Source: an uncultured Coriobacteriaceae bacterium
Lineage (GTDB): Bacteria > Actinomycetota > Coriobacteriia > Coriobacteriales > Atopobiaceae
Direction of reading: 5' to 3'
DNA: 64,000 nucleotides
NCBI GenBank assembly: GCA_902803315.1
Contig: CADCPM010000085.1
Coordinates: 35-64,034, forward strand
The position numbers and the translations under genes are program-made. Shown here in pieces: positions 1 to 40,553 of the stretch. The stretch's first letter is position 1, and each line of letters begins with the position of its first letter. A model generated the notes under the pieces. It was not told where the DNA came from. It saw only the letters and a list, made by a program, of their open reading frames with translations, and did not search any database.

Positions 1-756
1 GCCGACTGCTACCTCATGGTGGACGGCGACGACACCTACCCGGCCGAGGCGGCGCCGGAGCTCGTGCGCCCCGTGCTGGCGGGCCGCGCCGACCACGTGG
101 TGGGCGACCGGCTCTCCAACGGTACCTACGGGGATCAGAACAAGCGGCAGTTCCACGGCTTCGGCAACGGGCTCGTGCGCTGGCTGATCCGCGCCCTCTA
201 CGGCTTCGACTACGCCGACGTGATGACGGGCTACCGTGCCATGAGCCGCCCGTTCTGCCGCACCTACCCCGTGCTCTCCCCGGGCTTCGCGCTGGAGACC
301 GAGCTCTCCATCCACGCGGTGGACAAGCGGTGGAGGATCGAGCAGGTGCCCATCGAGTACCGCGACCGGCCCGAGGGCTCGGAGTCCAAGCTCAATACGA
401 TATCGGACGGCCTCAAGGTGCTGCGCATGATCGCGAGCCTGTTCAAGGACTACCGCCCGCTGCCGTTCTTCCTGCTCTTCGCCGTCCTGTTCCTGGTGGT
501 CTGCCTGGCCCTGGGCCTGCCCGTGGTGGCCGAGTTCGGCAAGACCGGCCTGGTGGAGCGCTTCCCGACGGCCTTCCTCGCCATGGGCTTCGGCATCCTC
601 TCGGCCCTGTTCGTGGCCGTGGGGCTCGTACTCGACACCGAGGTGAAGGCGAGCCGGCGCGCCTGGGAGCTGGAGTGCGCCCGCGCCTTCGAGCAGGATC
701 GGGTGCTGAGGGCGCGGAGCCGCCGCGCCGACGTGCGGGCGGACGTGGAAGAATAG
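1..756 (+). CDS. Family 2 glycosyltransferase, 5'-truncated by the window edge. It is of the polyprenyl-phosphate sugar synthase (GtrB/DPM1-like) type with C-terminal TM helices.
   Basis: The frame is open from nt 1. Motifs seen: DxD region 'YLMVDGDDTY', 'DVMTGYRAMSRPF' and 'IEYRDRPEGSESKLNTISDGLKVL'. Two hydrophobic helices follow (PFFLLFAVLFLVVCLALGL and AFLAMGFGILSALFVAVGLVL). Stop at 754-756. Confidence 0.8.
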   Translation, partial: ADCYLMVDGDDTYPAEAAPELVRPVLAGRADHVVGDRLSNGTYGDQNKRQFHGFGNGLVRWLIRALYGFDYADVMTGYRAMSRPFCRTYPVLSPGFALETELSIHAVDKRWRIEQVPIEYRDRPEGSESKLNTISDGLKVLRMIASLFKDYRPLPFFLLFAVLFLVVCLALGLPVVAEFGKTGLVERFPTAFLAMGFGILSALFVAVGLVLDTEVKASRRAWELECARAFEQDRVLRARSRRADVRADVEE

Positions 757-14064: not shown

Positions 14065-14970
14065 ATGAAGGGAATCATACTTGCGGGCGGTAGCGGAACG
14101 CGACTGTATCCGCTCACTACCGTAACGAGCAAGCAATTGTTGCCAATATACGACAAGCCAATGGTCTATTATCCGCTTTCCACGCTTATGCTGGCGGGCA
14201 TACGTGACATCCTGCTCATCTCGACGCCACGCGATTTGCCGGGGTTCAGGAATCTTTTGGGGGATGGCAGCGACTTTGGCATAAGCCTCTCGTATGCCGA
14301 GCAGCCCAGTCCAGACGGTCTTGCACAGGCGTTCGTGATCGGCGCCGATTTTATTGGCGGCGAGGCGTGCGCGTTGGTGTTAGGCGACAACATCTTCTAT
14401 GGCAACGGCCTTTCCAATCGTCTGAGGTCCGCCGTTGCCGCAGCAGAGCAGGGCAAGGCTACCGTGTTTGGCTATCACGTGGACGATCCCGAGCGCTTTG
14501 GTGTGGTGGAGTTCGATAAGGACTACAACGCAATCTCCATAGAGGAGAAGCCCGCCCATCCCAAGAGCAACTACGCCGTTACGGGCCTTTACTTCTATCC
14601 GTCCTCGGTTACGTCTGAGGCAGCCGAGGTAAAGCCCTCAGCTCGTGGAGAGTACGAAATCACGGATCTTAACAAGCGCTACTTGGATCGTGGCGAGCTC
14701 GACGTGATTACGCTCGGTCGCGGTTTTGCGTGGTTGGATACGGGCACCATGGAGAGCCTCTATGAGGCGTCGGCGTTCGTGCGTACGGTAGAGAAGGCGC
14801 AGGATTTGCCTGTGAGCGTACCCGAAGAGATTGCGTATGTGCGCGGTTGGATCGACAGCGAGCGCCTCTTGCAATGTGCCGAGCGATACGGCAAGAGCGA
14901 CTACGGCGCGCACCTGCGCAAGGTTGCCGAGGGCAGGCTCGTGCCCGACAAGAACTACATGCAAAAATAG
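14065..14970 (+). CDS. rfbA: Glucose-1-phosphate thymidylyltransferase.
   Basis: '[55 protein letters not shown]', '[10 protein letters not shown]', '[10 protein letters not shown]'. Confidence 0.95.
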
Positions 14971-17605: not shown

Positions 17606-17681
17606 GACCATGCAGCTTACGAGGCGTGTGCCATTGGGGCTCCACGGAAGAACTCATCAGAAGTGAAAGGTGGTTTTTAAC

Positions 17682-19367
17682 ATGGACGAGAAGACGGCGC
17701 ACGCCATGGAAGAACCTGGCGACCAAGAGCCGAGCGGGCCAAAGCATCGGGCTGGGTTCAAACGATCCATTCTTGGCCATCCACTTCCCTATGCAATCGT
17801 TGTACTCTGTCTTATTCTTGTCGAAGGGGTCTATCTCATTGTCTCTCGACCCGCCATGCGAATTATCGTATTGGTGGCTCTTGCTTGTCTGTTTGTGGTT
17901 TCCATTGTCGTGTGGACAAGGTTGCGTGGCAACGAGGACAACGCGGTCGAGGTGTTTGCTCATCGCGTCTTTCCGGTGGCGCTCTTGATTTTGGGCGTTG
18001 CCTTTATGTTGTTCTTCCCGCCACGAGCCGTGCCCGACGAGGACTACCACTTTGGCTATTCTTACAGCTATGCCAATCTGTTGGATCCTACTTATGGCGA
18101 GATGGACATACGCAAGGAAGACGACTTACTCATACGTGATACCGCGTTGTTTTCACGCGAAATGAAGGCGGATTACTGGCTTCGTCTACAAGAAGGGGTT
18201 CCTATCTTTGCCCAAAATGGTGAGAAGATACCCTATGAGTTTGACAATACCGTTCAAGATCGTCCTATAGTGCGCCCCATTCTTTCTGGGGGCTACATGA
18301 ACAATCCCCCTCAACTTAAGCTCGCGTCGGGCGTGGGGATTCTGCTGGGAAGGGCTCTCAACCTGAGCGGAATCGTCGTGTACTTCTTGGGAAGGCTCTT
18401 CAACTTCCTGTTTGCCTTCGCTCTTATTGTGCTGGCGGTTCGTCTTATCCCTGTGGGCAAAAACATTATGATGGCGGTTGCGCTTTTGCCTATGACGCTA
18501 CACTTGCTCGGCTCGTACTCCTACGATGCTGGCATCATAGGCCTATCGTTTCTTCTTATTGCGCTGCTGGTAAGAATAATCGCCCATGAGGAAAAGGCTT
18601 CGCGTAAGTACTTGGTGGCGACATGTGCAACAGCGGTGCTGCTGGCCCCCTGTAAAGTGGTCTATGTTCCTATCTGTATTCTTGCGCTGTGCGTGCCTAC
18701 CACGAGGTTTTCTTCAAGTCGGGAGATGCTCGTTTGGAAAGCATCAATGCTCCTGCTCCCACTTTTCTGTATTGGATTGCTGCGTATGACCAGCATCGTG
18801 CATGTGTCCGGCGCTGACGGGTCGTCTGGCCAAACAGTCACGCGCTTTGGCAACGAACAGGGAACGTATTACAAGATGACAGACGTGGTTCAACGGCCTC
18901 TTCACACGGCTTACGTGTTTCTGCGCACACTTTACGAGAACATCGACGCTTATTTCCTTACAACAGTTGGGGGAGCCTTGGCTTCTATGCAGGGCAATAT
19001 ATTTGCTAAAAACGTGCAAGTATTTGCCTATGCGCTGATGCTTTGCTTTGCGACCATCCCATCTGCAGACGACGACGGCACGTTCAAGTGGAGAGAGCGA
19101 CTTGTCTCTTTGGCTATCTTTATTATGGTGGCCGTTGCAACGATGTTGGCGCTCATGGTCTCGTGGACGTTTGTGACGGAAGACGTTATCGAAGGGGTTC
19201 AGGGACGCTATTTCTTGCCCGTGCTACCACTGCTGCTCCTTGCGCTACGTGGTAACAGCATTGTCTCGAAGGTAAAGAGCGCTCCCCTTATCGTCATGAC
19301 GCTCGGCGGCTTGAACCTCCTCTATCTCGCACAGATCTACTATTCGGTCTTAGGTGGTCCGATGTAA
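17682..19367 (+). CDS. Polytopic membrane protein, DUF2142/GT-C-like.
   Basis: ORF 17670..19367, with the ATG at 17682 following GAAAGGTGG. The first extracytoplasmic loop starts 'PPRAVPDEDYHFGYSY', an acidic motif typical of GT-C enzymes. It has about 12 TM segments. Confidence 0.6.
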   Translation: MDEKTAHAMEEPGDQEPSGPKHRAGFKRSILGHPLPYAIVVLCLILVEGVYLIVSRPAMRIIVLVALACLFVVSIVVWTRLRGNEDNAVEVFAHRVFPVALLILGVAFMLFFPPRAVPDEDYHFGYSYSYANLLDPTYGEMDIRKEDDLLIRDTALFSREMKADYWLRLQEGVPIFAQNGEKIPYEFDNTVQDRPIVRPILSGGYMNNPPQLKLASGVGILLGRALNLSGIVVYFLGRLFNFLFAFALIVLAVRLIPVGKNIMMAVALLPMTLHLLGSYSYDAGIIGLSFLLIALLVRIIAHEEKASRKYLVATCATAVLLAPCKVVYVPICILALCVPTTRFSSSREMLVWKASMLLLPLFCIGLLRMTSIVHVSGADGSSGQTVTRFGNEQGTYYKMTDVVQRPLHTAYVFLRTLYENIDAYFLTTVGGALASMQGNIFAKNVQVFAYALMLCFATIPSADDDGTFKWRERLVSLAIFIMVAVATMLALMVSWTFVTEDVIEGVQGRYFLPVLPLLLLALRGNSIVSKVKSAPLIVMTLGGLNLLYLAQIYYSVLGGPM

Positions 19368-20596: not shown

Positions 20597-20736
20597 GTTA
20601 CGGTTCACGCCCCCCACGCCTACGACAGCACGCGTGCGGCGACTCACGAAGTGAGCGAGCGAAGCGAGCGTGGAGTCGCATGCGTGCTGACGTAGGCGTG
20701 GGGGGGCGCGAAGTGCGTGGGGATATGAACTGTAAC
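20597..20736 (+). repeat. Family-1 hairpin element with outer GTTACGGTTCAC / TGAACTGTAAC termini.
   Basis: Core GGCGACTCACGAAGTGAGCGAGCGAAGCGAGCGTGGAGTCGC. Arms are CGCCCCCCACGCCTACGACAGCACGC and GCGTGCTGACGTAGGCGTGGGGGGCG. The outer inverted termini are shared with the copy at 23906. Confidence 0.9.
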
Positions 20737-20848: not shown

Positions 20849-21985
20849 ATGATTGATTTTAATATTGCGCCGTTCGTGGGGACGGAAACCGACTACATTC
20901 GCGAGGCCGTTGCCAACAAGATGATTTGCGGCGACGGTCCATTTACCAAGCGGTGTCACGCGTGGATGAGGGAACGCTTTGGGACGCCAAAGGCCCTCCT
21001 TACCACAAGTGGTACCTCTGCGTTGGAGATGGCTGCGCTTCTGTGTGACCTAGAGCCGGGTGATGAGGTTATCCTTCCCAGCTTTACGTTCTCTTCCACT
21101 GCGAACGCCTTCGTTTTGGCTGGTGCCAAGCTGGTGTTTACGGACATTCGTCCCGACACCATGAACATCGACGAGAAGAAGATCGAGGCCGCAGTTACAG
21201 ATCGAACGAGGGCGATATGCGTCGTTCATTACGCTGGCGTAGCGTGTGAGATGGACGCCATTATGGAAATAGCCCAGAAGTACGGGCTCAAAGTGGTGGA
21301 AGACGCAGCACAAGGTGTGATGAGCTCCTACAAGGGTCGTGCGCTGGGAACCATTGGCGATTTTGGCTGCTTTTCGTTCCACGAAACGAAGAACTACTCC
21401 ATGGGTGAGGGAGGGGCATTCCTTACCAAGGAGGTGTCGTATGCCGAGCGTGCGGAGATTCTGCGCGAGAAGGGTACCGATAGGTCCAAATTCCTGCGCG
21501 GACAGGTTGACAAGTACACGTGGCAGGACTACGGCTCGAGCTACCTTCCGTCCGATATAAACGCCGCCTATCTGTGGGCGCAACTTGAGAAGGCTGACGA
21601 GATAAATGAGAACAGGCTCGCGTCGTGGAATGCCTACGACGCCGCGCTGCGACCGCTTGCGGAACGCGGATTGGTGGAGCTTCCCACCATCCCCGCGGAG
21701 TGTGTGCACAACGCCCATATGTATTGGCTCAAGGCAGCCGATCTGGACGAACGTACACGGCTCATAGCGCATCTCAAAGCGTGTGGAGTGCAGGCGACGT
21801 TCCACTACATCCCGCTTCACTCGGCGCCTGCCGGGCTGAAGTTCGGGCGCTTTGCTGGAGAAGACGAGTTCACGACGCGGGAGAGCAATCGTCTCCTGCG
21901 CTTACCCATGTACTACAACCTCGCAAAAGGCGACCTTTTGCATGTGATTGACGCGATCTACGAGTTCTACGGAGTCTTACGATGA
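20849..21985 (+). CDS. wecE: dTDP-4-amino-4,6-dideoxygalactose (Fuc4N) transaminase, DegT/DnrJ/EryC1 family.
   Basis: The match to my recollection of E. coli WecE is colinear and high-identity. Segments seen: 'MIDFNIAPFVGTETDYI', 'CGDGPFTKRCHAWMRERFG', 'VVHYAGVACEMDAIM', 'FSFHETKNYSMGEGGA' (PLP Lys), 'REKGTDRSKFLRGQVDKYTWQDYGSSYLPSD'. Confidence 0.85.
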   Translation: MIDFNIAPFVGTETDYIREAVANKMICGDGPFTKRCHAWMRERFGTPKALLTTSGTSALEMAALLCDLEPGDEVILPSFTFSSTANAFVLAGAKLVFTDIRPDTMNIDEKKIEAAVTDRTRAICVVHYAGVACEMDAIMEIAQKYGLKVVEDAAQGVMSSYKGRALGTIGDFGCFSFHETKNYSMGEGGAFLTKEVSYAERAEILREKGTDRSKFLRGQVDKYTWQDYGSSYLPSDINAAYLWAQLEKADEINENRLASWNAYDAALRPLAERGLVELPTIPAECVHNAHMYWLKAADLDERTRLIAHLKACGVQATFHYIPLHSAPAGLKFGRFAGEDEFTTRESNRLLRLPMYYNLAKGDLLHVIDAIYEFYGVLR

Positions 21986-23184
21986 GTAGCTCGCGCAACA
22001 ATGGGGAAGGTAAAGCTCGGCATGACGGCAAAGTGCTGGCCGTAATTGGTGCGTCGGAGTTCCAGGTGCCGCTTATTCGCAAGGCCCAGTCCTTGGGATG
22101 TACGGTGCACGCGTTTGCCTGGGAGTGTGGCGACTTGGGCGAGAGCATTGCCGACGTATTCCATCCCGTAAGTACGGCTGAGCGCGATGAGGTCTTGCGC
22201 ATTTGCAAAGAGGTTGGCGTGGACGGCGTATGTACCATAGGGTCGGACTTCAACAACATCACAGCCACTTGGGTGGCCAATAGAATGGGGCTTTCGGCCA
22301 ACACAGACGAATGCGCGCGACTTTCGACTGACAAGCGCGCAATGAGAAAGGCGTTTGCGGCTGCTGGTGACCCCTCGCCTGTAAGCATTCCCGTGCGTGA
22401 AGGCGATTCCATGCCGACCGAACTTGACGGGCTGACCTATCCCGTAATCGTAAAGCCCTCTGATCGCTCGGGGAGTCGCGGCATTACCAGGCTCTCGAGT
22501 CCAGAAGGCCTTCTGGATGCCCTTACGACCGCATGGGACGAGTCTTTCTGCAAGATTGCACTTGTGGAGGAGTTCTTGGAGGGCGATGAGTTTAGCGTGG
22601 AGTGCATGTCGTGGGAAGGCATGCATCACGTACTCCAAATAACCCGCAAGTTCACTACGGGGAACCCTCACTTTATTGAGACCGCCCATCTGGAACCTTC
22701 GTTGCTCCCAGCTGAGGAGTGTGCTCGTGTGGAGCAGGTTGTGATGCATGCATTGGACACGCTTGGCGTGCAAAAAGGGGCTTCTCATGCTGAGCTTAAG
22801 GTCAATGGCCGTGGTGAGCCTTGGATCGTGGAGATTGGCAGTCGTATGGGCGGCGACTATATTGGGAGCGATCTCGTGCCTCTTTCCACGGGCGTCGACT
22901 TCGTAGGTGCGGTGGTGGACGTAGCCTTGGGTACAGAGCCCGATTTGCGAGGGCTTTCGTCTCCTCGTGCGTCTGCAGTGCGATTCGTGCTTTCGGAAGA
23001 GGACGTGGCTATACTTACGGACCTTCGGAGCAAGCGTCCCGATTTGGTGGTGAGTGAGTCGTGGAGTGTGCCGGTGGGCCACGAGGTCGTTGACAGCTCT
23101 ACGCGCTTTGGCCACTGCATCATGGCTGCCGATTCTGCGGAAGAGCTTCTTCCGTGGCTTGCCGGAGGCGTTGCGTGTGACTAA
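21982..23184 (+). CDS. ATP-grasp domain ligase of unknown substrate.
   Basis: ATGA overlap with the wecE stop. Motifs: 'YPVIVKPSDRSGSRGITRL', 'LVEEFLEGDEFSVECMS', 'GASHAELKVNGRGEPWIVEIGSRMGGDYIG'. Confidence 0.8.
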   Translation: MSSSRNNGEGKARHDGKVLAVIGASEFQVPLIRKAQSLGCTVHAFAWECGDLGESIADVFHPVSTAERDEVLRICKEVGVDGVCTIGSDFNNITATWVANRMGLSANTDECARLSTDKRAMRKAFAAAGDPSPVSIPVREGDSMPTELDGLTYPVIVKPSDRSGSRGITRLSSPEGLLDALTTAWDESFCKIALVEEFLEGDEFSVECMSWEGMHHVLQITRKFTTGNPHFIETAHLEPSLLPAEECARVEQVVMHALDTLGVQKGASHAELKVNGRGEPWIVEIGSRMGGDYIGSDLVPLSTGVDFVGAVVDVALGTEPDLRGLSSPRASAVRFVLSEEDVAILTDLRSKRPDLVVSESWSVPVGHEVVDSSTRFGHCIMAADSAEELLPWLAGGVACD

Positions 23185-23539
23185 GACGAGTCCCAAAACG
23201 CTGCTTTTCCTGCATTTGCTGCTCATGATGTATTCCTGCGAGGGCATTCTTAGTAAGCTTGCGGCCGGTCAGGAGTTCTTGTCCCCGGGTTTCATCCTAT
23301 GCTATGGGGGCGTTATTGCCATTCTCGGGCTGTACGCAATCGGCTGGCAGCAAGCCATAAAACGTATGCCGCTCACCTCAGCCTATGCCAACCGCGCCAT
23401 CACTGTGGTGTGGGGCGTAATATGGGGGATTGTGGTCTTCCATGAAGGCGTGTCGTTGCTGCAGCTTTTGGGATGCGCGCTCGTTGTTGCGGGAGTTGCC
23501 CTGTTTGCCACAGCAGACACTGGTGGTGAGGCTGCATGA
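23177..23539 (+). CDS. Small 4-TM EamA/SMR-like (DMT superfamily) membrane protein, ArnE/ArnF-like.
   Basis: GTG 23177 lies 7 nt after GGAGG and overlaps the upstream stop. About 120 aa: 'LLFLHLLLMMYSCEGILSKLAA...AYANRAITVVWGVIWGIVVFHEGVSLLQLLGCALVVAGVALF'. Confidence 0.65.
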   Translation: MTKTSPKTLLFLHLLLMMYSCEGILSKLAAGQEFLSPGFILCYGGVIAILGLYAIGWQQAIKRMPLTSAYANRAITVVWGVIWGIVVFHEGVSLLQLLGCALVVAGVALFATADTGGEAA

Positions 23540-23889
23540 ATGCGGATGTGGCGTTTCATGCGATGTTCCTGCTCTTGGGAACGTTCTTGGCTGCCGTGTC
23601 GCAGGTAATGCTCAAAAAAGCGGCTATGCGTAAGTACGATTTCGTGCTGGCGGAATACCTTAATCCGTTGGTGATTTTCGCCTACGTGATCTTTGTGGGG
23701 ACGACGCTTCTTGGCATTCTTGCGTATAGGGGCATTCCCCTTTCCATGGGTCCGGTGCTGGAGGCTACCAGCTACTTTTACGTGACTTTCTTCGGAGTAC
23801 GAATATTTGGCGAGAAGATGACGCGAAAGAAGTGGATTGCCCTTGGACTCATTCTTGCGGGCATATGTGTGTACGCCTTGGGAGTGTGA
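23536..23889 (+). CDS. Second small 4-TM EamA/SMR-like membrane protein; forms a pair with 23177..23539.
   Basis: ATGA overlap with the upstream gene. 117 aa: 'FLLLGTFLAAVSQVMLKKAA...ATSYFYVTFFGVRIFGEKMTRKKWIALGLILAGICVY'. Confidence 0.7.
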   Translation: MNADVAFHAMFLLLGTFLAAVSQVMLKKAAMRKYDFVLAEYLNPLVIFAYVIFVGTTLLGILAYRGIPLSMGPVLEATSYFYVTFFGVRIFGEKMTRKKWIALGLILAGICVYALGV

Positions 23890-23905
23890 GGGTTGACGTG
23901 AGGCC

Positions 23906-24025
23906 GTTACAGTTCACACCCCGCGCCTGTGTCCGGACCGCAAGCGGCGACTCACGAAGTGAGCGAGCGGAGCGAGCGCGGAGTCGCACGCGGGACCGGC
24001 GAAGGTGCGGGGTGTGAACTGTAGC
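23906..24025 (+). repeat. Family-1 hairpin element with outer GTTACAGTTCAC / GTGAACTGTAGC termini.
   Basis: Core GGCGACTCACGAAGTGAGCGAGCGGAGCGAGCGCGGAGTCGC. The outer 14 bp, AGTTCACACCCCGC / GCGGGGTGTGAACT, are perfectly complementary. The inner arms carry internal loops. Confidence 0.9.
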
Positions 24026-24063: not shown

Positions 24064-24807
24064 ATGGACGAGCAGCGTGTGGAAGCGGTTATATTTGCCG
24101 GAGGTGTGGGCAGGCGCATGGGCAGCGGTCCACGTCCCAAGCAGTTTCTCGAGCTTAGCGGAAGACCGATTATCGACTATACAATCGCGCACTTTGCCGA
24201 GCATCCGCAGGTATCGGGCGTGGTTGTAGTGTGCCTTGAGTCCTGGATGGACTACCTGGCTGACGTGCTTGACAAACGGAGATACCAGACTCCCGTGGAC
24301 ATCGTTGCGGGCGGTGTGACGGGACAGGAATCCATCTTTAACGGCCTGCACCATCTGCACGAGAAGCATCCGGGCGACGATGAGGCAATTGTTCTTGTGC
24401 ACGACGGCGTGCGTCCCCTTATTGACGAGGCGACCATAACGGCTTGCGTGACATCGGTTGTGGAGCGCGGCTGCACAGCCACCGTGTCGCCTGCCATCGA
24501 GACGATTGTGGTCGGTGGCAGCGAGGGGGCCATAGAGCAGTTCATACCACGTTCGGAAGTGGGGCTGGCCCGAGCGCCCCAGGCGTTCTTTCTCGAGGAG
24601 CTCTATGCGGCTCACCTGCAAGCGCGTTCCGAGGGCAAAGGCAACTTCATAGACTCCGTAAGCATGATGGCGCACTATGGGCATCCCATCTATACCGTGG
24701 AAGGGCCTGTTGAGAACATTAAGGTCACAACCCCCATGGATTACTATGCCTTTAAGGGCTACATGGATGCACGCGACCAGCGCATGTTGTGGTCGGGCGA
24801 AGAGTAG
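24064..24807 (+). CDS. IspD/TarI-family cytidylyltransferase (putative ribitol-5-phosphate or related polyol-phosphate cytidylyltransferase).
   Basis: 'AVIFAGGVGRRMGSGPRPKQFLELSGRPII', 'VLVHDGVRPL', 'RAPQAF'. Confidence 0.8.
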   Translation: MDEQRVEAVIFAGGVGRRMGSGPRPKQFLELSGRPIIDYTIAHFAEHPQVSGVVVVCLESWMDYLADVLDKRRYQTPVDIVAGGVTGQESIFNGLHHLHEKHPGDDEAIVLVHDGVRPLIDEATITACVTSVVERGCTATVSPAIETIVVGGSEGAIEQFIPRSEVGLARAPQAFFLEELYAAHLQARSEGKGNFIDSVSMMAHYGHPIYTVEGPVENIKVTTPMDYYAFKGYMDARDQRMLWSGEE

Positions 24808-24818
24808 GGGGAGTGTCC

Positions 24819-25847
24819 ATGGGTAAGTTCTACGACGCCGACCTTACTTCGATTGCACAGGATAACTTGGTGCCTTGGTCGGTCTTCGAGGGTGCGACGG
24901 TAGCCGTTACGGGCGCGACGGGTCTCGTTGGCAGCATGGTTGTGCGAGCGTTGCTTCGGCGGTGCGAGGTGGCAGTAGGTCCCGCAAGGCTGGTGCTGCC
25001 CGTTCGCAATTTGGAGAAGGCGCGCACACAGTATGGTTCGTATTCCAGTGTTGAACTCGTAGAGTGGGATGCAGCCTTAGGGGAGGCGCCTCGCATTGAG
25101 GGCAATTGCGACTACGTGGTGCACTGCGCAAGTAACACCGACAGCAGACTCATGGTCGAAAGGCCGGTAGACACCATCGAAGCCACAGTGGAAGGCACTC
25201 GCGCAATGCTTGAGCTTGCGCGCTCTACCGGGACACGCATGTGCTTTGTGTCCTCTATGGAGGTATATGGATCTGGCTCTGCCGACCCGTTGGACGAGAC
25301 ACGCGGCGGCGAGTTGGATGCCATGAGCGTGCGGAGCAGCTATCCGCAGGCCAAGCAGCTGGCCGAGACGCTCTGCGCCTCCTATGCCTCGCAGTATGGG
25401 GTTCGCGTGTGCGTCGCTCGACTTGCCCAATCGTTTGGCCCAGGCATCGCAAACACCGACAAACGCGTATTTGCCGAGTTTGCCCGTTGCTGCGAGCGGG
25501 GCGAGGACATTGTCCTGCTAACCGATGGGTCAAAGAGCAACATGTACGTATACATAGCAGATGCCGTGAGGGCGCTCCTGCTGCTTGTTGCATGTGGTGA
25601 GTCCGGAGAGGCATACAACGTGGCAAACGAGCAGACGTTCTGCTCGATATGGGAGATGGCCAACATGGTGGCTGGCGCCTTTGGCCCGCATACCAAGGTC
25701 ACGAGGGTTAAGGATCTAAATGCGGCCAAGCGCTTTGCCGTGGCTGGGTGCCTGCGACTCAACACCTCCAAGATCCGTGCCTTGGGCTGGGAGCCCAAGG
25801 TAGGGCTCGAGGACATGTATCGTCGCATGATGGCGGACTGGAAGTAA
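24819..25847 (+). CDS. NAD(P)-dependent epimerase/dehydratase-family SDR (possible reductase partner of the cytidylyltransferase).
   Basis: Rossmann motif 'VAVTGATGLVGSMVVRAL', 'YPQAKQLAE' (YxxxK), 'VVHCASNTD'. The ATG at 24819 follows GGGGGA. Confidence 0.8.
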   Translation: MGKFYDADLTSIAQDNLVPWSVFEGATVAVTGATGLVGSMVVRALLRRCEVAVGPARLVLPVRNLEKARTQYGSYSSVELVEWDAALGEAPRIEGNCDYVVHCASNTDSRLMVERPVDTIEATVEGTRAMLELARSTGTRMCFVSSMEVYGSGSADPLDETRGGELDAMSVRSSYPQAKQLAETLCASYASQYGVRVCVARLAQSFGPGIANTDKRVFAEFARCCERGEDIVLLTDGSKSNMYVYIADAVRALLLLVACGESGEAYNVANEQTFCSIWEMANMVAGAFGPHTKVTRVKDLNAAKRFAVAGCLRLNTSKIRALGWEPKVGLEDMYRRMMADWK

Positions 25848-25920: not shown

Positions 25921-25995
25921 GTGTCATGCGTATGGCATTTGTCAATTTCTTTTCTAGACTAGTTGCTGTTCAGAAGGCAATCGTGGGGAGAACAC

Positions 25996-27099
25996 ATGCA
26001 AACCTATCTTGTTACCGGTGGCGCTGGTTTTATTGGCTCCAACTTCGTTCTTTATATGCTGCGCAAGCATGAGGACGTGAAGATAGTCAACGTGGATGCG
26101 CTTACCTATGCCGGCAACTTGGAGAACCTAAAGTCCGTGGAAAACGATCCGCGCTACACATTCGTACATGCCGACATTCGCGATGCCGAAGCAATTTCCG
26201 CGGCTCTTTTGGAGCATGACCCCGACTACGTAATCAACTTTGCGGCCGAAAGCCATGTGGATCGCTCCATTGCGGACCCAGGCATTTTTGCAGATACCAA
26301 CGTAATGGGCACCGTAAACATGCTCAACTGCTGTCGTGCTGCGTGGGACGATGGCAAGGGCGGCTTTGGTGATCATCGTTACCTGCAGGTAGGAACAGAC
26401 GAGGTGTACGGCACTCTGGCAATTCCTGAGGCGCTCAACGAGAACGGCAGCCCTGCCGATCCCGAGCACACCGATTACTTCCGCGAGGACACGCCGCTTT
26501 CACCTCATTCGCCCTACAGCGCGTCCAAGACATCCGCCGACCTGTTTGTTAAGGCATACCACGATACGTATGGCTTCCCCTCGGTAATCACCCGTTGCTC
26601 CAACAACTATGGTCCGTACCAGTTCCCCGAGAAGCTCATTCCGCTCATGATCAACAACGCGCTGCACCACAAGGAGCTTCCCGTGTATGGCGATGGCCTC
26701 AACGTGCGTGACTGGCTGTATGTGGACGATCACTGCAAGGCCATCGACATGGTGGCGCGCGAGGGGCGTCTGGGCGAAGTGTACAACGTGGGCGGTCACA
26801 ACGAGCGTGCCAACATCTACATCGTGAAGACCATCATCGCCGAGGTGGCAAAGGCTACGGGCGATGAGGCCATAACCGAGGACCTTATCCACTACGTGCA
26901 GGATAGGGCGGGTCACGATCGCCGCTATGGCATGGCACCCGACAAGATAAAGGCCGAGCTGGGCTGGTATCCCGAGACTCCCTACGAAGAGGGCATCGTG
27001 AAGACCATCCGTTGGTATCTGGACAATCCCGAGTGGGTTGCCAACGTTACGAGTGGTGCCTATGCGGACTATTACGATCGCATGTATGCAGGAAAATAG
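25996..27099 (+). CDS. rfbB: dTDP-glucose 4,6-dehydratase.
   Basis: 'MQTYLVTGGAGFIGSNFV', 'NFAAESHVDRSI', 'SPYSASKTSADLFV', 'RCSNNYGPYQFPEKLIPL', 'YGDGLNVRDWLYVDDH'. Confidence 0.95.
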   Translation: MQTYLVTGGAGFIGSNFVLYMLRKHEDVKIVNVDALTYAGNLENLKSVENDPRYTFVHADIRDAEAISAALLEHDPDYVINFAAESHVDRSIADPGIFADTNVMGTVNMLNCCRAAWDDGKGGFGDHRYLQVGTDEVYGTLAIPEALNENGSPADPEHTDYFREDTPLSPHSPYSASKTSADLFVKAYHDTYGFPSVITRCSNNYGPYQFPEKLIPLMINNALHHKELPVYGDGLNVRDWLYVDDHCKAIDMVAREGRLGEVYNVGGHNERANIYIVKTIIAEVAKATGDEAITEDLIHYVQDRAGHDRRYGMAPDKIKAELGWYPETPYEEGIVKTIRWYLDNPEWVANVTSGAYADYYDRMYAGK

Positions 27100-27124: not shown

Positions 27125-28990
27125 TTGGAGATGGGTGTTGCTATGAGTTCGCAGAGTGCCGAGAAGTCGAATTCGGGCGTAGGTATTGTTGGTCGCATAC
27201 GCACGTCGGCGCCAGTGCAAATGGCACGCGAACATCCGGCGATCTCGCTCTGCGTTGTTCTGCTTACGGGCATTCGCGTGCTGCTCGCATGCAGGACGCC
27301 ACTTATCTCGAGCATGGGATCCTTGTACGACGATAGGCTTCTGCTGCAATACGCATACGACATCGCACAAGGCAATTGGCTTGGCGCCTACAGTAACCTT
27401 GCCCTCACCAAGAACCCCGGATACGGACTCTTCATCGCCGCCTGCTATTTGCTTCACATACCATATCAGCTTGCCTATATAGCCTTGTATGCGGTGGCCT
27501 GCGTTGTGTGCTGTCTGGCCATAAGAACGTTTATTCCATCGCGAACAATACGATCGGTTCTGTTTGTTGCCCTGCTGTATGCTCCCGCCTTCTTTACGCT
27601 TGACTACTTCCAGCGGATGTATCGCATGGGAATCGTGTTGCCTCTAACCATGCTCATCTTCGCTTCGTATATAGGTCTGTATTTGCGGAGCGACAAGCCG
27701 TTGCGATCGGTGCTTCCCTGGGCTCTATGTGCAGGACTTAGCCTGCTTGGTTTGTGGGTTTCCACCGAGAGCGCGATGTGGGTTGTGCCTTTTGTCGCCG
27801 TTTGTTCTCTTGTTGTGCTGGGCGAAAGGGTGGTAGTAAGACACAAGTCTCAGAGGACGTGGCTGTGGCTCTGCGGCTGGGCCGTAATGCTTGTGCTTCC
27901 TATTGCTCTGCTGGTAGCGGGTACCTCTGCCATAAGGGCAACGAACAATAGGACCTACGGGGTGTCGGTGCTCAACGATCGCTACCAAGGCGGGTTTTCT
28001 AGGGCTACAGCTGCAATGATGAGCATAGAGGCAGGAGAGAGGCCCGAGCTCGTGTGGCTGTCCAACGCCGCACTCGAAAAGGCCATTGAGATGAGCCCTA
28101 CGCTTCGGTCCCAGCAAGACCCCATAAAGAAGACCTGGGATGATCAACGCCTGAAGTTCGCCCTCAAGGAGATAACGGGTGACCTTTCGTACTGGAATCT
28201 GCGCCAAGGCTATGCCAATGCCGGGGGCTATGTAGATGCGCGCGAAACAGATGCATTCTGGAACGCCGTTGCAGACGAGTTGGAAGACGCATATTCCGAC
28301 GGTCGGCTTACGAAAAGGGTGGGGCTTTATATTTCCCCGGCCACCGATCCCATTCCTTGGAATCGCATTCCTGTCCAAATGTTTAGGACGGTGAAGCAGA
28401 TTGCGAAGCTCTGCGTGCATAAGCCAATGACCAGCCAGATCATCGCTTCGAGCAAAGACCCCGCTGCTGGAACTGGCACTTTGGAAGATCAGCAAATGGC
28501 AACTGAGCTTGCGGGTGGCAACGTGCTCATGGGTGAGACGCCGGAAGGTGGGACTTCGGAGGCAGAGCAAAAGAACACAGTGGTCAATCCAGAGACGCTA
28601 AGTGCGGATGCGCTTGCGTTGGACATGGACCACTATATTGGAGCCATTGGCTCTCGCATTGGTATATTGCTGGCGTGTGGGTTGGTGGTAGCCCTTCCAT
28701 ATGCTCTGTACCTTGTCTTTAGGAACCGAGAAGACGATCGGTGGAGGCTCGTGCTCGTTTTGGCCGCTTTATTGCTAAGCGGATTCTTGCTGGTGTTCTC
28801 GGTCGTCTGGGCTATGGGCTTTGCGTGGGCGGGTTCGCATCGCATGCACGATTGGGCCGTCTTCTCGTACTGCGCTCCCTTCTATGGATTGCTCATGATG
28901 ATCGAATGCATAGTCTACGGAAAGCTTGTGACCCTTTTTGCCCGCTCAAGACACAGAGGGGCCAGCGACAGCCCTACGAAAGGAGCGTAG
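27125..28990 (+). CDS. Large polytopic membrane protein with a ~270-aa extracytoplasmic domain (GT-C/PMT-like candidate).
   Basis: 621-aa ORF with an N-terminal block of about 8 TM segments ('NPGYGLFIAACYLL', 'LLYAPAFFTLDYFQRMY'), a soluble region at aa 270-520, and 3 C-terminal TM segments. The start is ambiguous (TTG 27125, ATG 27131 or ATG 27143). Confidence 0.6.
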   Translation: MEMGVAMSSQSAEKSNSGVGIVGRIRTSAPVQMAREHPAISLCVVLLTGIRVLLACRTPLISSMGSLYDDRLLLQYAYDIAQGNWLGAYSNLALTKNPGYGLFIAACYLLHIPYQLAYIALYAVACVVCCLAIRTFIPSRTIRSVLFVALLYAPAFFTLDYFQRMYRMGIVLPLTMLIFASYIGLYLRSDKPLRSVLPWALCAGLSLLGLWVSTESAMWVVPFVAVCSLVVLGERVVVRHKSQRTWLWLCGWAVMLVLPIALLVAGTSAIRATNNRTYGVSVLNDRYQGGFSRATAAMMSIEAGERPELVWLSNAALEKAIEMSPTLRSQQDPIKKTWDDQRLKFALKEITGDLSYWNLRQGYANAGGYVDARETDAFWNAVADELEDAYSDGRLTKRVGLYISPATDPIPWNRIPVQMFRTVKQIAKLCVHKPMTSQIIASSKDPAAGTGTLEDQQMATELAGGNVLMGETPEGGTSEAEQKNTVVNPETLSADALALDMDHYIGAIGSRIGILLACGLVVALPYALYLVFRNREDDRWRLVLVLAALLLSGFLLVFSVVWAMGFAWAGSHRMHDWAVFSYCAPFYGLLMMIECIVYGKLVTLFARSRHRGASDSPTKGA

Positions 28991-29954
28991 GGAGCGACAA
29001 AGAGAACGCGCGTGGGAACCGCGCAAAGAGATAGCCGCGCGTACGCATTTCTCTTGACGAAACATGCGGAGCGACGATGCGATAGAGCATACGATACGTT
29101 GCCTGCGCATCGCGAACGATTTCGTCATCTTTGCCCGTTTTCGCAGCACGCTGCGCGACGGCAATCGCGCCGATTGTCCTAAGCAACGCGCTGCTGGCCC
29201 ATTCGTACTGGTCATTGCCAATAAAGTACCGGCATTTGTAGAAGTTGCTCTCTGCTTGCTCGATAAGCCGCACGCCTTGGTCGGTTCCCATGATGCTTCC
29301 CGAGCGCTGCAAATAGAAGTACAGGACGTCCGAGATGGCTACGATGCGATTGCAGCGAGAGATAACATCACAAAGTATGTACTCGTCCTCATAGAGCCTT
29401 CCCTCCGCATAGCGTAGCGTTGAGAAGATACTGCTCTTATAAAGCTTGTTCCAAGCAACGACTGCGGCGCTTGCCCCTTTGGGCACTGAACTCGAGCCAC
29501 CAACGAAATAGCGCCCCCAAAAGTCCTCCGTAGACATGACTCCAGGATCGAGTGAGATGGTGTCAAGCCTTTGATGGCTCTCGTCCACAAGGTTAAACGC
29601 ACAGAGCGCCAAGTCGGCGTCTGAGTCCGTTATGGCGCTGTGCAAGGTCTCGATGTAGTGAGAATCTACGTAGTCGTCGCTGTCCACAAAAGCGATATAG
29701 ACGCCCCCCGCCACGTCTAAGCCAGCATTTCTCGCCGAGGACAAGCCTCCGTTTGGCTTGTGGATAGCCCGAACGCGTTCGTTGTTTTTTGCATAGCAAT
29801 CGCAGAGACCGGAGGAACGATCGGTTGACCCATCATCGACGAGGATGATTTCGAGATTGGTATACGTCTGCGTTAAAAGGCTGTCCACGCAAGTGGGGAG
29901 GTAACGTTCGACGTTGTATACCGGAACGACAATCGAGACGAGGTCCTGTGCCAT
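28974..29954 (-). CDS. Family 2 glycosyltransferase.
   Basis: 'LVSIVVPVYNVERYLPTCVDSLLTQTYTNLEIILVDDGSTDRS', 'FVDSDDYV'. The ORF extends to 29972; ATG 29954 (MAQDL..) is preferred. Its 3' end overlaps the convergent gene by 17 nt. Confidence 0.85.
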   Translation of the reverse strand: MAQDLVSIVVPVYNVERYLPTCVDSLLTQTYTNLEIILVDDGSTDRSSGLCDCYAKNNERVRAIHKPNGGLSSARNAGLDVAGGVYIAFVDSDDYVDSHYIETLHSAITDSDADLALCAFNLVDESHQRLDTISLDPGVMSTEDFWGRYFVGGSSSVPKGASAAVVAWNKLYKSSIFSTLRYAEGRLYEDEYILCDVISRCNRIVAISDVLYFYLQRSGSIMGTDQGVRLIEQAESNFYKCRYFIGNDQYEWASSALLRTIGAIAVAQRAAKTGKDDEIVRDAQATYRMLYRIVAPHVSSREMRTRGYLFARFPRAFSLSLPTLLS

Positions 29955-30087
29955 GTGTGCACTCCAAACCATGCGGGCGTTACTGGGCTCTGCATGCTAG
30001 TATAATCCACGACAAACCATGTGGTGCAGGCACGGGAGGATACGAACGGCAGCGAATGCAAGAAGCCATAGAGGGGAAGGGGCGCGA

Positions 30088-31291: not shown

Positions 31292-31720
31292 ATGAGTACT
31301 CAGTTCAAGCGAGTTATTACTTACGGAACGTTTGACCTTTTGCACTATGGGCACATAAATCTGCTGCGCCGTGCTCGAGAGCTCGGCGACTACCTTGTTG
31401 TTGCCCTTTCCACGGATGAGTTCAATCTGCAAAAGGGTAAGAAATGCTACTTCTCCTATGAGGAGCGCAAGCAGCTTGTTGAGGCTGTTCGCTATGTTGA
31501 CCTTGTTATACCCGAGCAAACATGGGAACAGAAGGCAACCGATGTTCATGAGCTGGGAATATCGACGTTTGTGATGGGTGACGACTGGAAGGGGGAGTTC
31601 GACTTCCTTCGGGAGGAGGGAGTTGAAGTCGTATACCTTCCCAGAACGCCCGAGATTAGCACCACGCAGATTAAGACTGACCTTGGGCTTGACCGCGACG
31701 CTCAGCAAGCTTCTGAGTGA
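31292..31720 (+). CDS. tagD: Glycerol-3-phosphate cytidylyltransferase.
   Basis: 'RVITYGTFDLLHYGHINLLRRARELGDYLVVALSTDEFN' (HxGH), 'RTPEISTTQIK'. Confidence 0.9.
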   Translation: MSTQFKRVITYGTFDLLHYGHINLLRRARELGDYLVVALSTDEFNLQKGKKCYFSYEERKQLVEAVRYVDLVIPEQTWEQKATDVHELGISTFVMGDDWKGEFDFLREEGVEVVYLPRTPEISTTQIKTDLGLDRDAQQASE

Positions 31721-33152
31721 CGGAGCGAACCAGATACTTGTATGACTCGATGCCTAAGAGCTTGGATAGTCCAACGTATATTGCAAAGCCAAGGGCCGCC
31801 TTTACTATGAGCCTAACCAAGACGATTGGGATGGGCAGTGGAATAAAGTATATAGCCGCGGCCATGGCGAGCGCGCATCCTATTGAGGGCAGGATGTCGA
31901 GCAGCTGCGTATGGATGTCGTAATCAAGGTGACGCTTGAGCTGGAACACGTTTACTATCGTGCCATACAAATCGTAGAGGGCCATGGTAATCGCGATGGC
32001 CATGGTGCCCCGATACACGCCAACAATAAGCAAGAGCACGTACACCGGCTTCTTGATAAACTCAAGGCGGAGCACAATGTCGCTGCGACCGATTGCCTTG
32101 AGTGCCTGGAGCGGAATGACGCCGAGTACGCCAATGGTTAGACCTGCAGAGAGGATCTGCAAATACGGCACGCATTCAAGCCACTTTTCGGTGAAGAGAA
32201 GCAATACGATATCTGATGCTGCTGCCGCCATACCCAAAAGAAGCGGTGCGGTTACATACGACATGACTTGCACGCAGCGACGGCAGATTTGCCTAACCGC
32301 CCCAACGTCATCCCCCTCGTTGGACATGATGGGGAAGAGCACGCCCATAACTGCCGACCCCAAGTTTTGGGTTATGAGTTGCGGAAGCTGCTGACCCTTG
32401 TTGTAGAACGCCAGGTCTGCGGGCGTGTAGAACTTGCCAACGATAAGGGACCTCAGCTGTCCAAAAAACGTTCCGCTCAGGTCGGCTGCGAGCACTTTCC
32501 ATCCGTAGCTCATAAGCGGTTTGGCGGCCGACCACGAAAAGAGCAGGCGTGGTCGCCAGGGAACGGTAATGAACAGGACTATGGCATCCATAATGGTGTC
32601 GGCAAAGTATTGCGCGATGAGTGCCCATACGCCAAAGCCTGCCATTGCCATCGCTATTCCAATAACGCCCGAGGCAAGTGTGCCGACCAAAGAGGACCAG
32701 AAGAATCGCTTGAAGAGCAAATGGCGTGAGACATACGCGTGCTGGATCGCCCCAAAGGCGCTCAGGGGAATCCTCAGCGCAAATACCCTGAGGATGAGGC
32801 AAAGGGATGGTTGGGCGTAGAAGTTGGCAATAAAGGGCGCGCAAATGAACAGGATTGCGTAGAGGATGCACGAACAGGCGAGGCTGCAATAGAACATGGT
32901 CGAGAAGTCCAGCTCATCCGCGTCCTTCTTCTGAATGAGCGCGGTGGCAAATCCGCTCGATACGAACGTATTTGCGAGCGTGATGAACACGAGCACCATG
33001 GCAATGATGCCGTAGTCGCTTGGCGACAGGAGGCGCGAGAGCACCACCGAGACAACAAACGAGACGATTTGCGTGGCCATCTTCTCGCTGAACATCCACG
33101 CAAAACCCGAAACGACAGCGGTTCTTCTATCTGTTTGGCTCGAATCGGCCAT
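31671..33152 (-). CDS. Wzx-type oligosaccharide flippase (MOP/polysaccharide biosynthesis protein family).
   Basis: About 14 TM segments. 'FAWMFSEKMATQIVSFVVSVVLSRLLSPSDYGIIAMVLVFITLANTFVSSGFATALIQKK' is a typical Wzx N-terminus. The ORF extends to 33164. Confidence 0.85.
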   Translation of the reverse strand: MADSSQTDRRTAVVSGFAWMFSEKMATQIVSFVVSVVLSRLLSPSDYGIIAMVLVFITLANTFVSSGFATALIQKKDADELDFSTMFYCSLACSCILYAILFICAPFIANFYAQPSLCLILRVFALRIPLSAFGAIQHAYVSRHLLFKRFFWSSLVGTLASGVIGIAMAMAGFGVWALIAQYFADTIMDAIVLFITVPWRPRLLFSWSAAKPLMSYGWKVLAADLSGTFFGQLRSLIVGKFYTPADLAFYNKGQQLPQLITQNLGSAVMGVLFPIMSNEGDDVGAVRQICRRCVQVMSYVTAPLLLGMAAAASDIVLLLFTEKWLECVPYLQILSAGLTIGVLGVIPLQALKAIGRSDIVLRLEFIKKPVYVLLLIVGVYRGTMAIAITMALYDLYGTIVNVFQLKRHLDYDIHTQLLDILPSIGCALAMAAAIYFIPLPIPIVLVRLIVKAALGFAIYVGLSKLLGIESYKYLVRSVTQKLAERRGQAQGQS

Positions 33153-33192
33153 GTGCAATCCCAACTATACGTCTGAAAGGAAAAGGTTGTTG

Positions 33193-39793: not shown

Positions 39794-40474
39794 CTATCTA
39801 AACCACTGGAAAAAGAGGATGGAGAAGCAGATTCTGCTCATATATGCGGCAACATGCGCGAAATCAAAGTAACTTTGGCCACCCTGACGCTCCTGCATGT
39901 GCGCGGGAATCTCGTATACTTTGGCTCCCTTTCGTGCCAAAAGGGCAACGGTGTCGGGCTCGGGCGTAAGGTCGTGACCGCGAGCGAACTGCTTGATAAC
40001 CGTGCGGTCGTACATGCGCATGCCCGACGTGGGATCGGTAATGCGCATGCCCGACGTCAGGCGAATGAGGGCCGATATGAGCTTTGAGCCAGCGCCGCGT
40101 GCGCCAGTCGGTCCTTCGTTCGCAAGTGCTCGAGAGGCGATTACGATGGAGGCGTCCTCGCGTTCCATGGCCTCAGCCATTTGCGGGATGTATTGCGGCA
40201 GGTGCTGGCCGTCTGCGTCAAACTGCACGGCCGCATCGTATCCGTGCCGATCCGCATATTTCATACCTGTTTGGAACCCGACGGCGAGGCCGGAGTTAAC
40301 GGGAAGGTTTACATGCGAGAATTTGTTTTGCTCGCAAATGGTGCGCGTGGCATCGGTCGAGCCGTCGTTAACAACGAGATAGTCAACCTCGGGGCACGCC
40401 CGCTTAAGGTCGAGGACGGTGTCCTGAATGCAGTCCTCTTCGTTGTATGCAGGTATGATAGCAAGAATTCTCAT
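39794..40474 (-). CDS. Family 2 glycosyltransferase, short soluble form (polyprenyl-phosphate glycosyltransferase-like).
   Basis: 'MRILAIIPAYNEEDCIQDTVLDLKRACPEVDYLVVNDGSTDAT', 'QFDADGQH'. Confidence 0.85.
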   Translation of the reverse strand: MRILAIIPAYNEEDCIQDTVLDLKRACPEVDYLVVNDGSTDATRTICEQNKFSHVNLPVNSGLAVGFQTGMKYADRHGYDAAVQFDADGQHLPQYIPQMAEAMEREDASIVIASRALANEGPTGARGAGSKLISALIRLTSGMRITDPTSGMRMYDRTVIKQFARGHDLTPEPDTVALLARKGAKVYEIPAHMQERQGGQSYFDFAHVAAYMSRICFSILFFQWFR

Positions 40475-40508
40475 GCAGGTTCCTCGCTCCGTTGCTTACG
40501 CACTCAAC

Positions 40509-40514
40509 TATAAT
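40509..40514 (+). promoter_or_regulatory. Candidate -10 element for rfbC in the divergent intergenic region.
   Basis: A perfect TATAAT lies 40 nt upstream of the rfbC ATG. No convincing -35 is found at 17-nt spacing. Confidence 0.3.
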
Positions 40515-40553
40515 CGAAATGACGAAGAAGGACATGATGAGGAAGGCTTTTGC

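Follow-up and report, generated by a model that had tools for sequence, protein, structure and literature searches.

The subject of this analysis is a group of four genes at positions 20849-23889 of a 64,000-nucleotide stretch of contig CADCPM010000085.1 (assembly GCA_902803315.1) from an uncultured Coriobacteriaceae bacterium. Judged by its closest relatives, the organism belongs to the Coriobacteriia and is Atopobiaceae-like. The whole stretch is referred to below as the window, and the contig as C85. All four genes lie on the + strand, and they encode the aminotransferase WecE, an ATP-grasp ligase, and two small membrane proteins, Eam1 and Eam2 (Table 1). The junctions are ATGA at 21982-21985 between wecE and the ATP-grasp gene, GTGACTAA at 23177-23184 between the ATP-grasp gene and eam1, and again ATGA at 23536-23539 between eam1 and eam2. 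Since the stop and start codons overlap at all junctions, the four genes are a single translationally coupled unit; a GGAGG- or GAGG-like Shine-Dalgarno sequence can be read upstream of every start. Moreover, some 80 species have this set of genes, hence the arrangement is not due to chance. An antisense open reading frame (ORF) at 21967-23247 (426 aa), longer than the ATP-grasp ORF, has zero Pfam matches and was rejected as a gene.

Table 1. Features of the window and related genes on other contigs (L, locus; aa, amino acids; TM, transmembrane; GT2, family 2 glycosyltransferase; GT-C, glycosyltransferase of fold C)
Feature	Location	Strand	Description and proposed role	Evidence or remark
wecE	20849..21985	+	predicted dTDP-4-keto-6-deoxy-D-glucose 4-aminotransferase	NF008687, TIGR02379 and solved WecE matches
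ATP-grasp ligase	21982..23184	+	from an uncharacterised family specific to the cassette; would N-acylate the 4-amino sugar	ATP-grasp_4 E = 3.9e-21
Eam1	23177..23539	+	120-aa, ~4-TM EamA/SMR-like half-transporter; proposed flippase subunit	EamA 6.5e-06
Eam2	23536..23889	+	117-aa, ~4-TM EamA/SMR-like half-transporter; proposed second flippase subunit	EamA 2.3e-06
rmlA	14065..14970	+	glucose-1-phosphate thymidylyltransferase; would supply dTDP-glucose	NTP_transferase 7.4e-76
rmlB	25963..27099	+	dTDP-glucose 4,6-dehydratase; would supply the 4-keto substrate of WecE	TIGR01181 447.6 bits, cut-off 365.1
DUF2142 protein	17670..19367	+	multi-TM; candidate GT-C transferase within the window	DUF2142 2e-46; ~10 hydrophobic segments
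GT2, 3' part	1..756	+	truncated at the contig end; GtrB-like layout with a two-helix C-terminal membrane anchor	translation
short soluble GT2	39794..40474	-	226 aa, PpgS/ArnC-like	PpgS 82.9 bits (cut-off 370), ArnC 52.1 bits
left hairpin repeat	20597..20720		REP-like, core GCGACTCACGAAGTGAGCGAGCG	predicted RNA fold -81.1 kcal/mol, z = -7.2
right hairpin repeat	23900..24025		same family and orientation as the left copy	predicted RNA fold -80.8 kcal/mol, z = -8.05
C12 locus	this genome (G000), contig C12, 70387-76453 (L097:6388-12454)	-	YfhO (943 aa), DegT2 (365 aa), GT2 (331 aa), deacetylase (301 aa)	
DegT2	L097:8282-9379	-	second DegT-family protein	usually beside ATP-grasp or GT2
DegT2 in other loci	L056:8949-9992, L051:8956-10005, L077:11929-13020, L098:9997-11049		as above	as above

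The wecE product exceeds the cut-offs of the NCBIfam equivalog NF008687 (619.5 bits, cut-off 375) and of TIGR02379 (614.7 bits, cut-off 434.85). It matches the solved WecE structures 6blg (E = 5.8e-164, 548.7 bits, residues 1-374) and 4piw (E = 6.6e-162, 541.9 bits), and its N-terminal start MIDFNIAPFVGTE agrees with that of solved WecE, MIPFNAPPVVGTE. The alignment retains K181, taken here to be the catalytic pyridoxal phosphate lysine of the DegT family, and D152. Judged by its sequence, the protein is a true equivalog of the transaminase of the enterobacterial common antigen (ECA) pathway. Because it scores at the equivalog level and matches solved WecE, the expected product is dTDP-4-amino-4,6-dideoxy-D-galactose (dTDP-Fuc4N), as an earlier note on this DNA had proposed; the preference for the galacto product over the gluco one (Qui4N) comes from the same equivalog-level similarity. 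The note also had RmlA and RmlB (RfbA and RfbB) of this locus supply dTDP-4-keto-6-deoxyglucose, and both genes are indeed found in the window. Thus the locus shares with the WecE-WecD branch of ECA synthesis an equivalog WecE and RmlA/RmlB feeding the same substrate. However, the coupled next gene encodes an ATP-dependent ligase, and there is no WecD-type acetyl-CoA transferase in the operon.

The ATP-grasp protein has 400 aa. Its AlphaFold2 model (pLDDT 90.4, 24 homologues in the input) was compared with known structures by Foldseek, which ranked the uncharacterised protein 4dim at the top, followed by 3vot, YwfE/BacD and RizA, and then by PurK/PurT. The TM-scores against 4dim and the L-amino-acid ligases (LALs) are 0.65-0.79 (3vot 0.79, BacD 0.75), while the identity to these structural relatives is 14-23% (4dim 19%, 3vot 22-23%, BacD/YwfE 18-20%, RizA 14%). 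The family profile matches 3vot at 7e-42, and its matches comprise only L-amino-acid ligases, 4dim, Ddl, carbamoyl-phosphate synthetase and biotin carboxylase.

In the family alignment the residues E271, E284, R288, G290/G291 and K158 are invariant. Four of them, E271, E284, R288 and G291, align with BacD and BL00235 and are the equivalents of the RhiC residues that bind Mg2+ (E258 and E271) and the carboxylate (R275/G278) (PMC13579937). The ATP-grasp fold and the conserved Mg2+/carboxylate residues are thus shared with 4dim and the L-amino-acid ligases BL00235, BacD/YwfE, RizA/RhiM and RhiC. There are differences as well. An invariant aspartate, D292, stands at the position of Trp332 of BacD, and the invariant C-terminal motif D371-S372-S373-x-R375-x-G377 is absent from 4dim. 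The Pfam scan detected no LAL_C2 C-terminal domain in the window protein. Finally, the known ligases belong to a peptide-antibiotic context, whereas this one is found in a context of glycan synthesis.

The fold model and the conserved residues make it very likely that the protein is an active carboxylate-amine ligase, and by its sequence it falls outside every characterised subfamily. As to the second substrate, the genomic setting favours a sugar amine. The suggestion that an ATP-grasp enzyme takes the place of WecD after wecE is supported: the coupled gene is confirmed, and the structure and profile searches that the note called for put its product nearest to the L-amino-acid ligases and 4dim. 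To our knowledge, this class of ATP-grasp ligases is not known to act on glycan precursors. In four loci, L001 (Oscillospiraceae), L020, L086 and L087, the cassette contains two to four different ATP-grasp genes, some of them with LAL_C2; the second and third ones are of the LAL type. This hints that in these species a short peptide, instead of a single acyl group, may be built on the sugar.

The start of eam1 was set at GTG 23177, as backed by the alignment of homologues, versus 23054 for the listed ORF; the N-terminal consensus of the family, MxKxxxKxLLxLHxLL, fits the window sequence MTKTSPKTLLFLH. Eam1 and Eam2 have about four hydrophobic segments each and, by hhalign (97.2%, E = 3.2e-11), are paralogues of each other. 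Eam1 matches the ArnE model at 3.9e-05 (23.8 bits, cut-off 92), the ArnF model at 2.6e-04 and also the SMR models, all below the cut-offs. Eam2 matches ArnE at 2.6e-06 over residues 11-113 of 117 (27.6 bits, cut-off 92). For ArnF the score is 21.4 bits (cut-off 99). The Eam1 profile reaches Gdx/EmrE at 0.0016-0.03. The earlier description of two adjacent, about 120-aa, four-TM proteins reminiscent of ArnE/ArnF agrees with their size, their overlapping genes and their weak ArnE/ArnF/SMR similarity. ArnE/ArnF-like working is meant here as an analogy from architecture and synteny, with no claim of family membership.

The note had left room for these small proteins being drug exporters. However, the first-TM glutamate typical of EmrE (E14) is absent from the invariant columns of the Eam1 and Eam2 alignments. 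A glutamate of the window Eam1, E22, is unconserved among the homologues. This bears on another reading, by which the ligase would be a conventional L-amino-acid ligase producing a cytoplasmic dipeptide or other metabolite, and the Eam pair its SMR/DMT-type exporter. The closest characterised ATP-grasp relatives are dipeptide ligases and the Eam proteins show weak SMR and DMT matches, but the low identity to these ligases, the undetected LAL_C2 domain, the lack of a conserved EmrE-type glutamate and the near-constant setting among WecE, GT2 and GT-C genes in glycan loci (see below) make this reading very improbable.

Matches to the ATP-grasp family were found in at least 583 species genomes. 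The best 80 all come from gut Coriobacteriia and Clostridia, and the genera among the family matches include Collinsella, Roseburia, Subdoligranulum, Adlercreutzia and Eggerthella, common in the human gut. ORF calling and phmmer labelling covered 85 loci. Of these, the 62 in which the ATP-grasp gene has 3 kb or more of sequence on each side were considered informative, and a GT2 was counted if it was within 6 kb of this gene. Related genomes are non-independent samples, so the genome-level counts of co-occurrence given below are descriptive and carry no statistical tests.

A membrane-anchored GT2 of the GtrB/ArnC/PgfS type is situated near the ATP-grasp gene in 56 of the 62 loci (90%), and the best model matches of these GT2s are PgfS and ArnC. 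The Eam pair is present in 49 (79%), directly downstream in 47, and a WecE orthologue in 45 (73%). All three accompany the ATP-grasp gene in 39 loci, and a single locus has none of them. A short-chain dehydrogenase/reductase (SDR) occurs in 32 loci and YfhO in 23; in other loci PMT_2 or DUF2142 replaces YfhO as the GT-C-type partner. In particular, a DUF2142 protein adjoins the Eam pair in two loci (L018 and L083), and in three others (L005, L076 and L082) one is close to the cassette. Two gene orders are typical: RmlA-RmlB-WecE-GT2-SDR-ATPgrasp-Eam1-Eam2-YfhO, as in L003 and L004, and YfhO-WecE-ATPgrasp-Eam1-Eam2-GT2, as in L008-L016. A membrane-anchored glycosyltransferase of fold A (GT-A), a small flippase and a multi-TM GT-C are encoded together in L003, L015 and the genome G025. 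Clustering of the recurrent unlabelled neighbours yielded wall hydrolases, PMT_2, DUF2142, RmlD and acyltransferase_3; no racemase or amino-acid-making enzyme that could point to the acid substrate was among the clusters.

The genes of the cassette also go together when they are not adjacent. In the sample of 121 Coriobacteriales genomes, the ATP-grasp gene is present in 7 and wecE in 21, the latter in 7 of 7 ATP-grasp-positive genomes versus 14 of 114 negative ones. Ten further genomes whose ATP-grasp gene has no wecE nearby all encode a WecE orthologue elsewhere (51-80% identity), so that WecE is carried by all 17 ATP-grasp-positive genomes tested. Among five genomes without an Eam pair near the ATP-grasp gene, four have an Eam2 orthologue elsewhere, in three cases on the same contig as wecE. 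Among close relatives the ATP-grasp gene has a scattered occurrence, with 6 positives in the other 120 Coriobacteriales genomes, a distribution typical of surface-antigen variation. The note had remarked that this gene combination seemed uncharacterised, and our literature searches combining ATP-grasp with YfhO, undecaprenyl, Qui4N/Fuc4N, teichoic acid, nucleotide sugar and similar terms likewise gave no description of the cassette.

Two side observations concern these loci. The SDR, similar to GalE and 4,6-dehydratases, is located between the GT2 and ATP-grasp genes in about half of the cassettes (L003:7013-8023, L035:8970-9992 and 30 others) and is of two subtypes, scoring about 550 and 200 bits against the L003 protein; the GT2-SDR pairing recalls PgfS and PgfE of Streptococcus mutans. 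Further, L082, titled Thermoguttaceae bacterium LCP21S3_D1, and L076 (Roseburia amylophila) have near-identical cassettes in the same gene order, with ATP-grasp end branches of 0.007 and 0.018. This suggests that the L082 record, a Roseburia-like contig under a Planctomycetota label, is mislabelled or contaminated.

The window contains no orthologue of the cassette-type GT2 or of YfhO. Candidates for both are found on another contig of the same genome, C12, where the genes for YfhO, a second, divergent DegT-family protein (DegT2), a GT2 and a deacetylase form one locus (Table 1). The C12 YfhO (PF09586, 2.1e-91) has orthologues inside the cassettes of the sister clade, scoring 1100-1370 bits. 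The GT2, which carries a TM hairpin at its C-terminus, scores 150.6 bits on the ArnC model (cut-off 529); its orthologues (250-450 bits) lie beside the ATP-grasp gene in 19 species. DegT2 lacks the first ~40-50 residues of WecE and retains those aligned to K181 and D152; in the sample of 121 genomes it occurs only here and in G025, both ATP-grasp-positive. In G025 the gene order is YfhO, then divergently WecE-ATPgrasp-DegT2-GT2-Eam1-Eam2, and in Allofournierella (L077) it is WecE-ATPgrasp-Eam1-Eam2-DegT2-GT2. The C12 GT2 is thus tied to the operon by synteny in G025, L077 and others. Since these two unite C12-type parts with WecE-ATPgrasp-Eam, we read C85 and C12, on the evidence of sequence and gene order, as two halves of one system; the GT-A, flippase and GT-C set is complete in this genome only when both contigs are combined.

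The earlier note had envisaged an Arn-type route of lipid-linked amino-sugar decoration involving the short GT2s at 1-756 and 39794-40474 and nearby GT-C-like proteins. The route itself is supported, by the cassette GT2 and GT-C genes, whereas the partners named have given way to those on C12, which are better supported. When compared with the cassette GT2s by phmmer, the GT2 at 1-756 had no hit at E <= 1, and it is not their orthologue. The GT2 at 39794-40474 has no TM segments at all, and the PpgS model that it matches is mycobacterial. It is possible that these two GT2s, together with the DUF2142 protein encoded two genes upstream of the operon, are alternative partners of the module.

Another two glycan genes of the window were considered and rejected. 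The GT2 at 28974-29972 is soluble and TM-free with WcaA/TuaG-type matches, and does not qualify as the lipid-carrier GT2. The SDR at 24789-25847 is not the SDR of the cassette (23 bits), its partner being an IspD-like gene.

Taken together, we consider it probable, though by analogy with known systems, that the four-gene operon is part of a widespread uncharacterised cassette that would attach an acylated 4-amino-6-deoxy sugar to wall polymers via an Arn-like lipid-carrier route. By strong homology, RmlA and RmlB would provide dTDP-4-keto-6-deoxyglucose and WecE would aminate it to dTDP-Fuc4N. The ATP-grasp ligase would then activate a carboxylate as the acyl phosphate and acylate the 4-amino group, standing in for WecD or ArnA and pulling the reversible transamination forward. 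The acyl donor would most likely be an alpha-amino acid, because the ligase is kin to the L-amino-acid ligases and Ddl. A GtrB/ArnC-type GT2, for which the C12 protein is the best candidate here, would load the sugar onto undecaprenyl phosphate, the Eam1/Eam2 heterodimer would flip the lipid-linked sugar, and a GT-C, either YfhO of C12 or the DUF2142 protein, would transfer it to a teichoic-acid-like polymer or a rhamnan, both of which the locus appears to make. The assignment of the GT2, flippase and GT-C steps draws on the association of these genes in some 80 species and on one relative, G025, that has all the parts side by side.

Several observations weigh against this scheme. The scores of the Eam proteins on the ArnE/ArnF models are far under the cut-offs. 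The ATP-grasp gene is linked more tightly to the GT2 than to WecE, and in the Gemmiger/Subdoligranulum clade the ATP-grasp and GT2 genes are together alone. No cassette-type GT2 adjoins the operon in this genome, hence the assignment of the partners is indirect. PurK and PurT are also among the close folds of the ligase, so that a very small acid, formate or bicarbonate, is a possible substrate. Finally, dltB (397.6 bits, over the cut-off) beside a dltA-like gene at 4431-7434 of contig C75 indicates that this genome probably D-alanylates its teichoic acids too; the module as a replacement for D-alanylation was therefore rejected.

Because of the stronger linkage to the GT2, the ligase could act on a lipid-linked sugar or another nucleophile: the sugar linked to undecaprenyl phosphate on the inner leaflet, a hydroxyl group of a sugar (forming an ester, as in the VanA type), or an aminoacyl chain being extended. 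Consistent with this are six species that have an ATP-grasp-GT2 pair with neither WecE nor the Eam pair nearby, and the additional LAL-type ATP-grasps of the four loci mentioned above. On the other hand, in the window the ATP-grasp gene is translationally coupled with wecE, and WecE is never missing from the ATP-grasp-positive genomes tested; we regard such alternative acceptors as quite improbable.

The absence of a GtrB-type GT2 or YfhO gene next to the operon, the many soluble GT2s of the window and a Wzx-type flippase gene at 31671-33164 would agree with a different fate of the acylated dTDP-sugar, namely, its use by a cytoplasmic Leloir glycosyltransferase in a Wzx-exported repeat unit. 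The Eam pair would then do some other job, and no lipid-monophosphate route would exist here. This is unlikely, given the frequency of the anchored GT2 and of the Eam pair at the informative loci, the single G025 operon holding all parts, and the orthologues of the cassette YfhO, GT2 and DegT2 on C12.

The proximity of PurT and PurK, as well as the deacetylase gene beside the C12 GT2, bear on a closer analogy with Arn. In this version the ligase would add a transient small acyl group (formate, as PurT does, or another), the GT2 would accept the acylated sugar, and a deacylase would later free cationic Fuc4N on the wall polymer. The deacetylase belongs to Polysacc_deac_1, the Pfam family of ArnD, and its orthologues follow the cassette GT2 in L009, L011, L012 and L014. 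However, these are only about 4 of the 85 cassettes. The protein starts with a signal- or lipobox-like sequence, MTKRLLCTTLAVFLCLGVLCAC, by which it is predicted to be secreted or a lipoprotein, and it resembles PgdA-type peptidoglycan deacetylases. Moreover, the matches of the ligase profile to L-amino-acid ligases and Ddl range from 7e-42 to 1e-12, and neither PurT nor PurK is among its matches down to 1e-05. The transient acyl group is accordingly a rather unlikely variant.

In its layout the proposed pathway is closest to the Arn (Pmr) system, in which ArnA, B, C, D, E, F and T modify lipid A with 4-amino-4-deoxy-L-arabinose (Ara4N). In the proposed form it would share with Arn a DegT-family 4-aminotransferase, N-acylation of the sugar nucleotide, a GT2 loading undecaprenyl phosphate, a pair of ~115-aa four-TM flippase subunits and an external GT-C. 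However, the sugar of the cassette is a dTDP-6-deoxyhexose instead of UDP-Ara4N; the acylation is assigned to an ATP-grasp ligase instead of a formyl-tetrahydrofolate transferase; the GT-C is YfhO, PMT_2 or DUF2142 instead of ArnT; and the proposed acceptor is a Gram-positive wall polymer. Consistent with the second of these points, no ArnA-type formyltransferase was seen among the window ORFs scanned, where the ATP-grasp gene follows the transaminase. In addition, all scores of the cassette on Arn models are under the cut-offs, and two separate loci of the present genome hold the parts.

The reviewed Gram-positive transmembrane glycosylation systems (CsbB/GtcA/YfhO, GtlA/GtlB, CsdAB, GacI-L) use a membrane GT-A making a C55-P-sugar, a small flippase and a YfhO/PMT_2-type GT-C to glycosylate lipoteichoic acid, wall teichoic acid or rhamnan; their flippases are of the GtrA or Wzx type and their sugars are Glc, Gal and GlcNAc (PMC8035078). 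The cassette has the same three parts, its GT-C resembling YfhO or PMT_2, but its candidate flippase is an SMR/EamA-type heterodimer, and the expected sugar, a 4-amino-6-deoxyhexose, has a transaminase and an ATP-grasp ligase of its own.

The proposed aminoacylation has a chemical precedent, as amino-acid-acylated 4-amino-4,6-dideoxyhexoses, with the amino acid amide-linked to the 4-amino group, exist in O antigens: the searched portions of a review describe Qui4N with D-alanyl in E. coli O123/S. enterica O58 and N-acetylglycine in E. coli O121 (PMC7685785). In these portions no enzyme is assigned to the aminoacylation of Qui4N. The O antigens described there differ in being Gram-negative, assembled as repeat units on undecaprenyl diphosphate, and of gluco configuration.

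The operon is bracketed by two copies of a hairpin repeat in direct orientation, 80% identical to each other. The exact 23-nt core, GCGACTCACGAAGTGAGCGAGCG, has six copies in the window versus none expected; long GC-rich hairpin copies are at 5824, 20639, 23947, 36376, 44912 and 52987. These elements are probably intergenic repeats resembling repetitive extragenic palindromes (REP), or terminators.

Some other genes of the window deserve mention. The GT2 at 1-756 is followed by a DUF6020 multi-TM protein at 2322-4475 (+; DUF6020 4.4e-48, ~11 hydrophobic segments), and the two may be a separate lipid-carrier glycosylation pair; an antisense ORF at 1-873, which longest-ORF calling prefers over this GT2, is spurious. 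The GT2 at 39794-40474 (-) overlaps divergently the start of rmlC (40428-41144, +), whose listed ORF is about 50 residues too long at the N-terminus, the true start probably being later. An IspD/TarI-like cytidylyltransferase gene overlapping that of the rejected SDR (24064-25847, +) recalls CDP-ribitol synthesis of the Bcs1 type. A 621-aa multi-TM protein at 27125-28990 (+), with no Pfam or NCBIfam match, converges on the soluble GT2 at 28974-29972 (-) with a 17-nt 3' overlap; outside this genome, the two genes are kept together only in its closest relative, L005.

As to the biological meaning, we put forward, as a tentative proposal of somewhat less than even standing, that a so far undescribed pathway is common to many Coriobacteriia and Clostridia of the gut. 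Its ATP-grasp enzyme would aminoacylate a 4-amino-6-deoxyhexose linked to a nucleotide or a lipid, and would be the first ligase of its class with a glycan precursor as substrate. An SMR-like heterodimer would flip the product, and a GT-C would place this cationic or zwitterionic sugar on wall polysaccharides or teichoic acids. If the reading is true, the cassette adds an amino-deoxy sugar, ATP-dependent acylation and an ArnE/ArnF-style flippase to the repertoire of Gram-positive glycosylation. Gram-positive bacteria would then have a counterpart of the Ara4N modification, which might affect how they resist cationic peptides and how the host immune system recognises them. If the added group has a free amine, the charge of the wall would be altered, with possible consequences for tolerance of antimicrobial peptides, for phage receptors and for commensal immune signalling.

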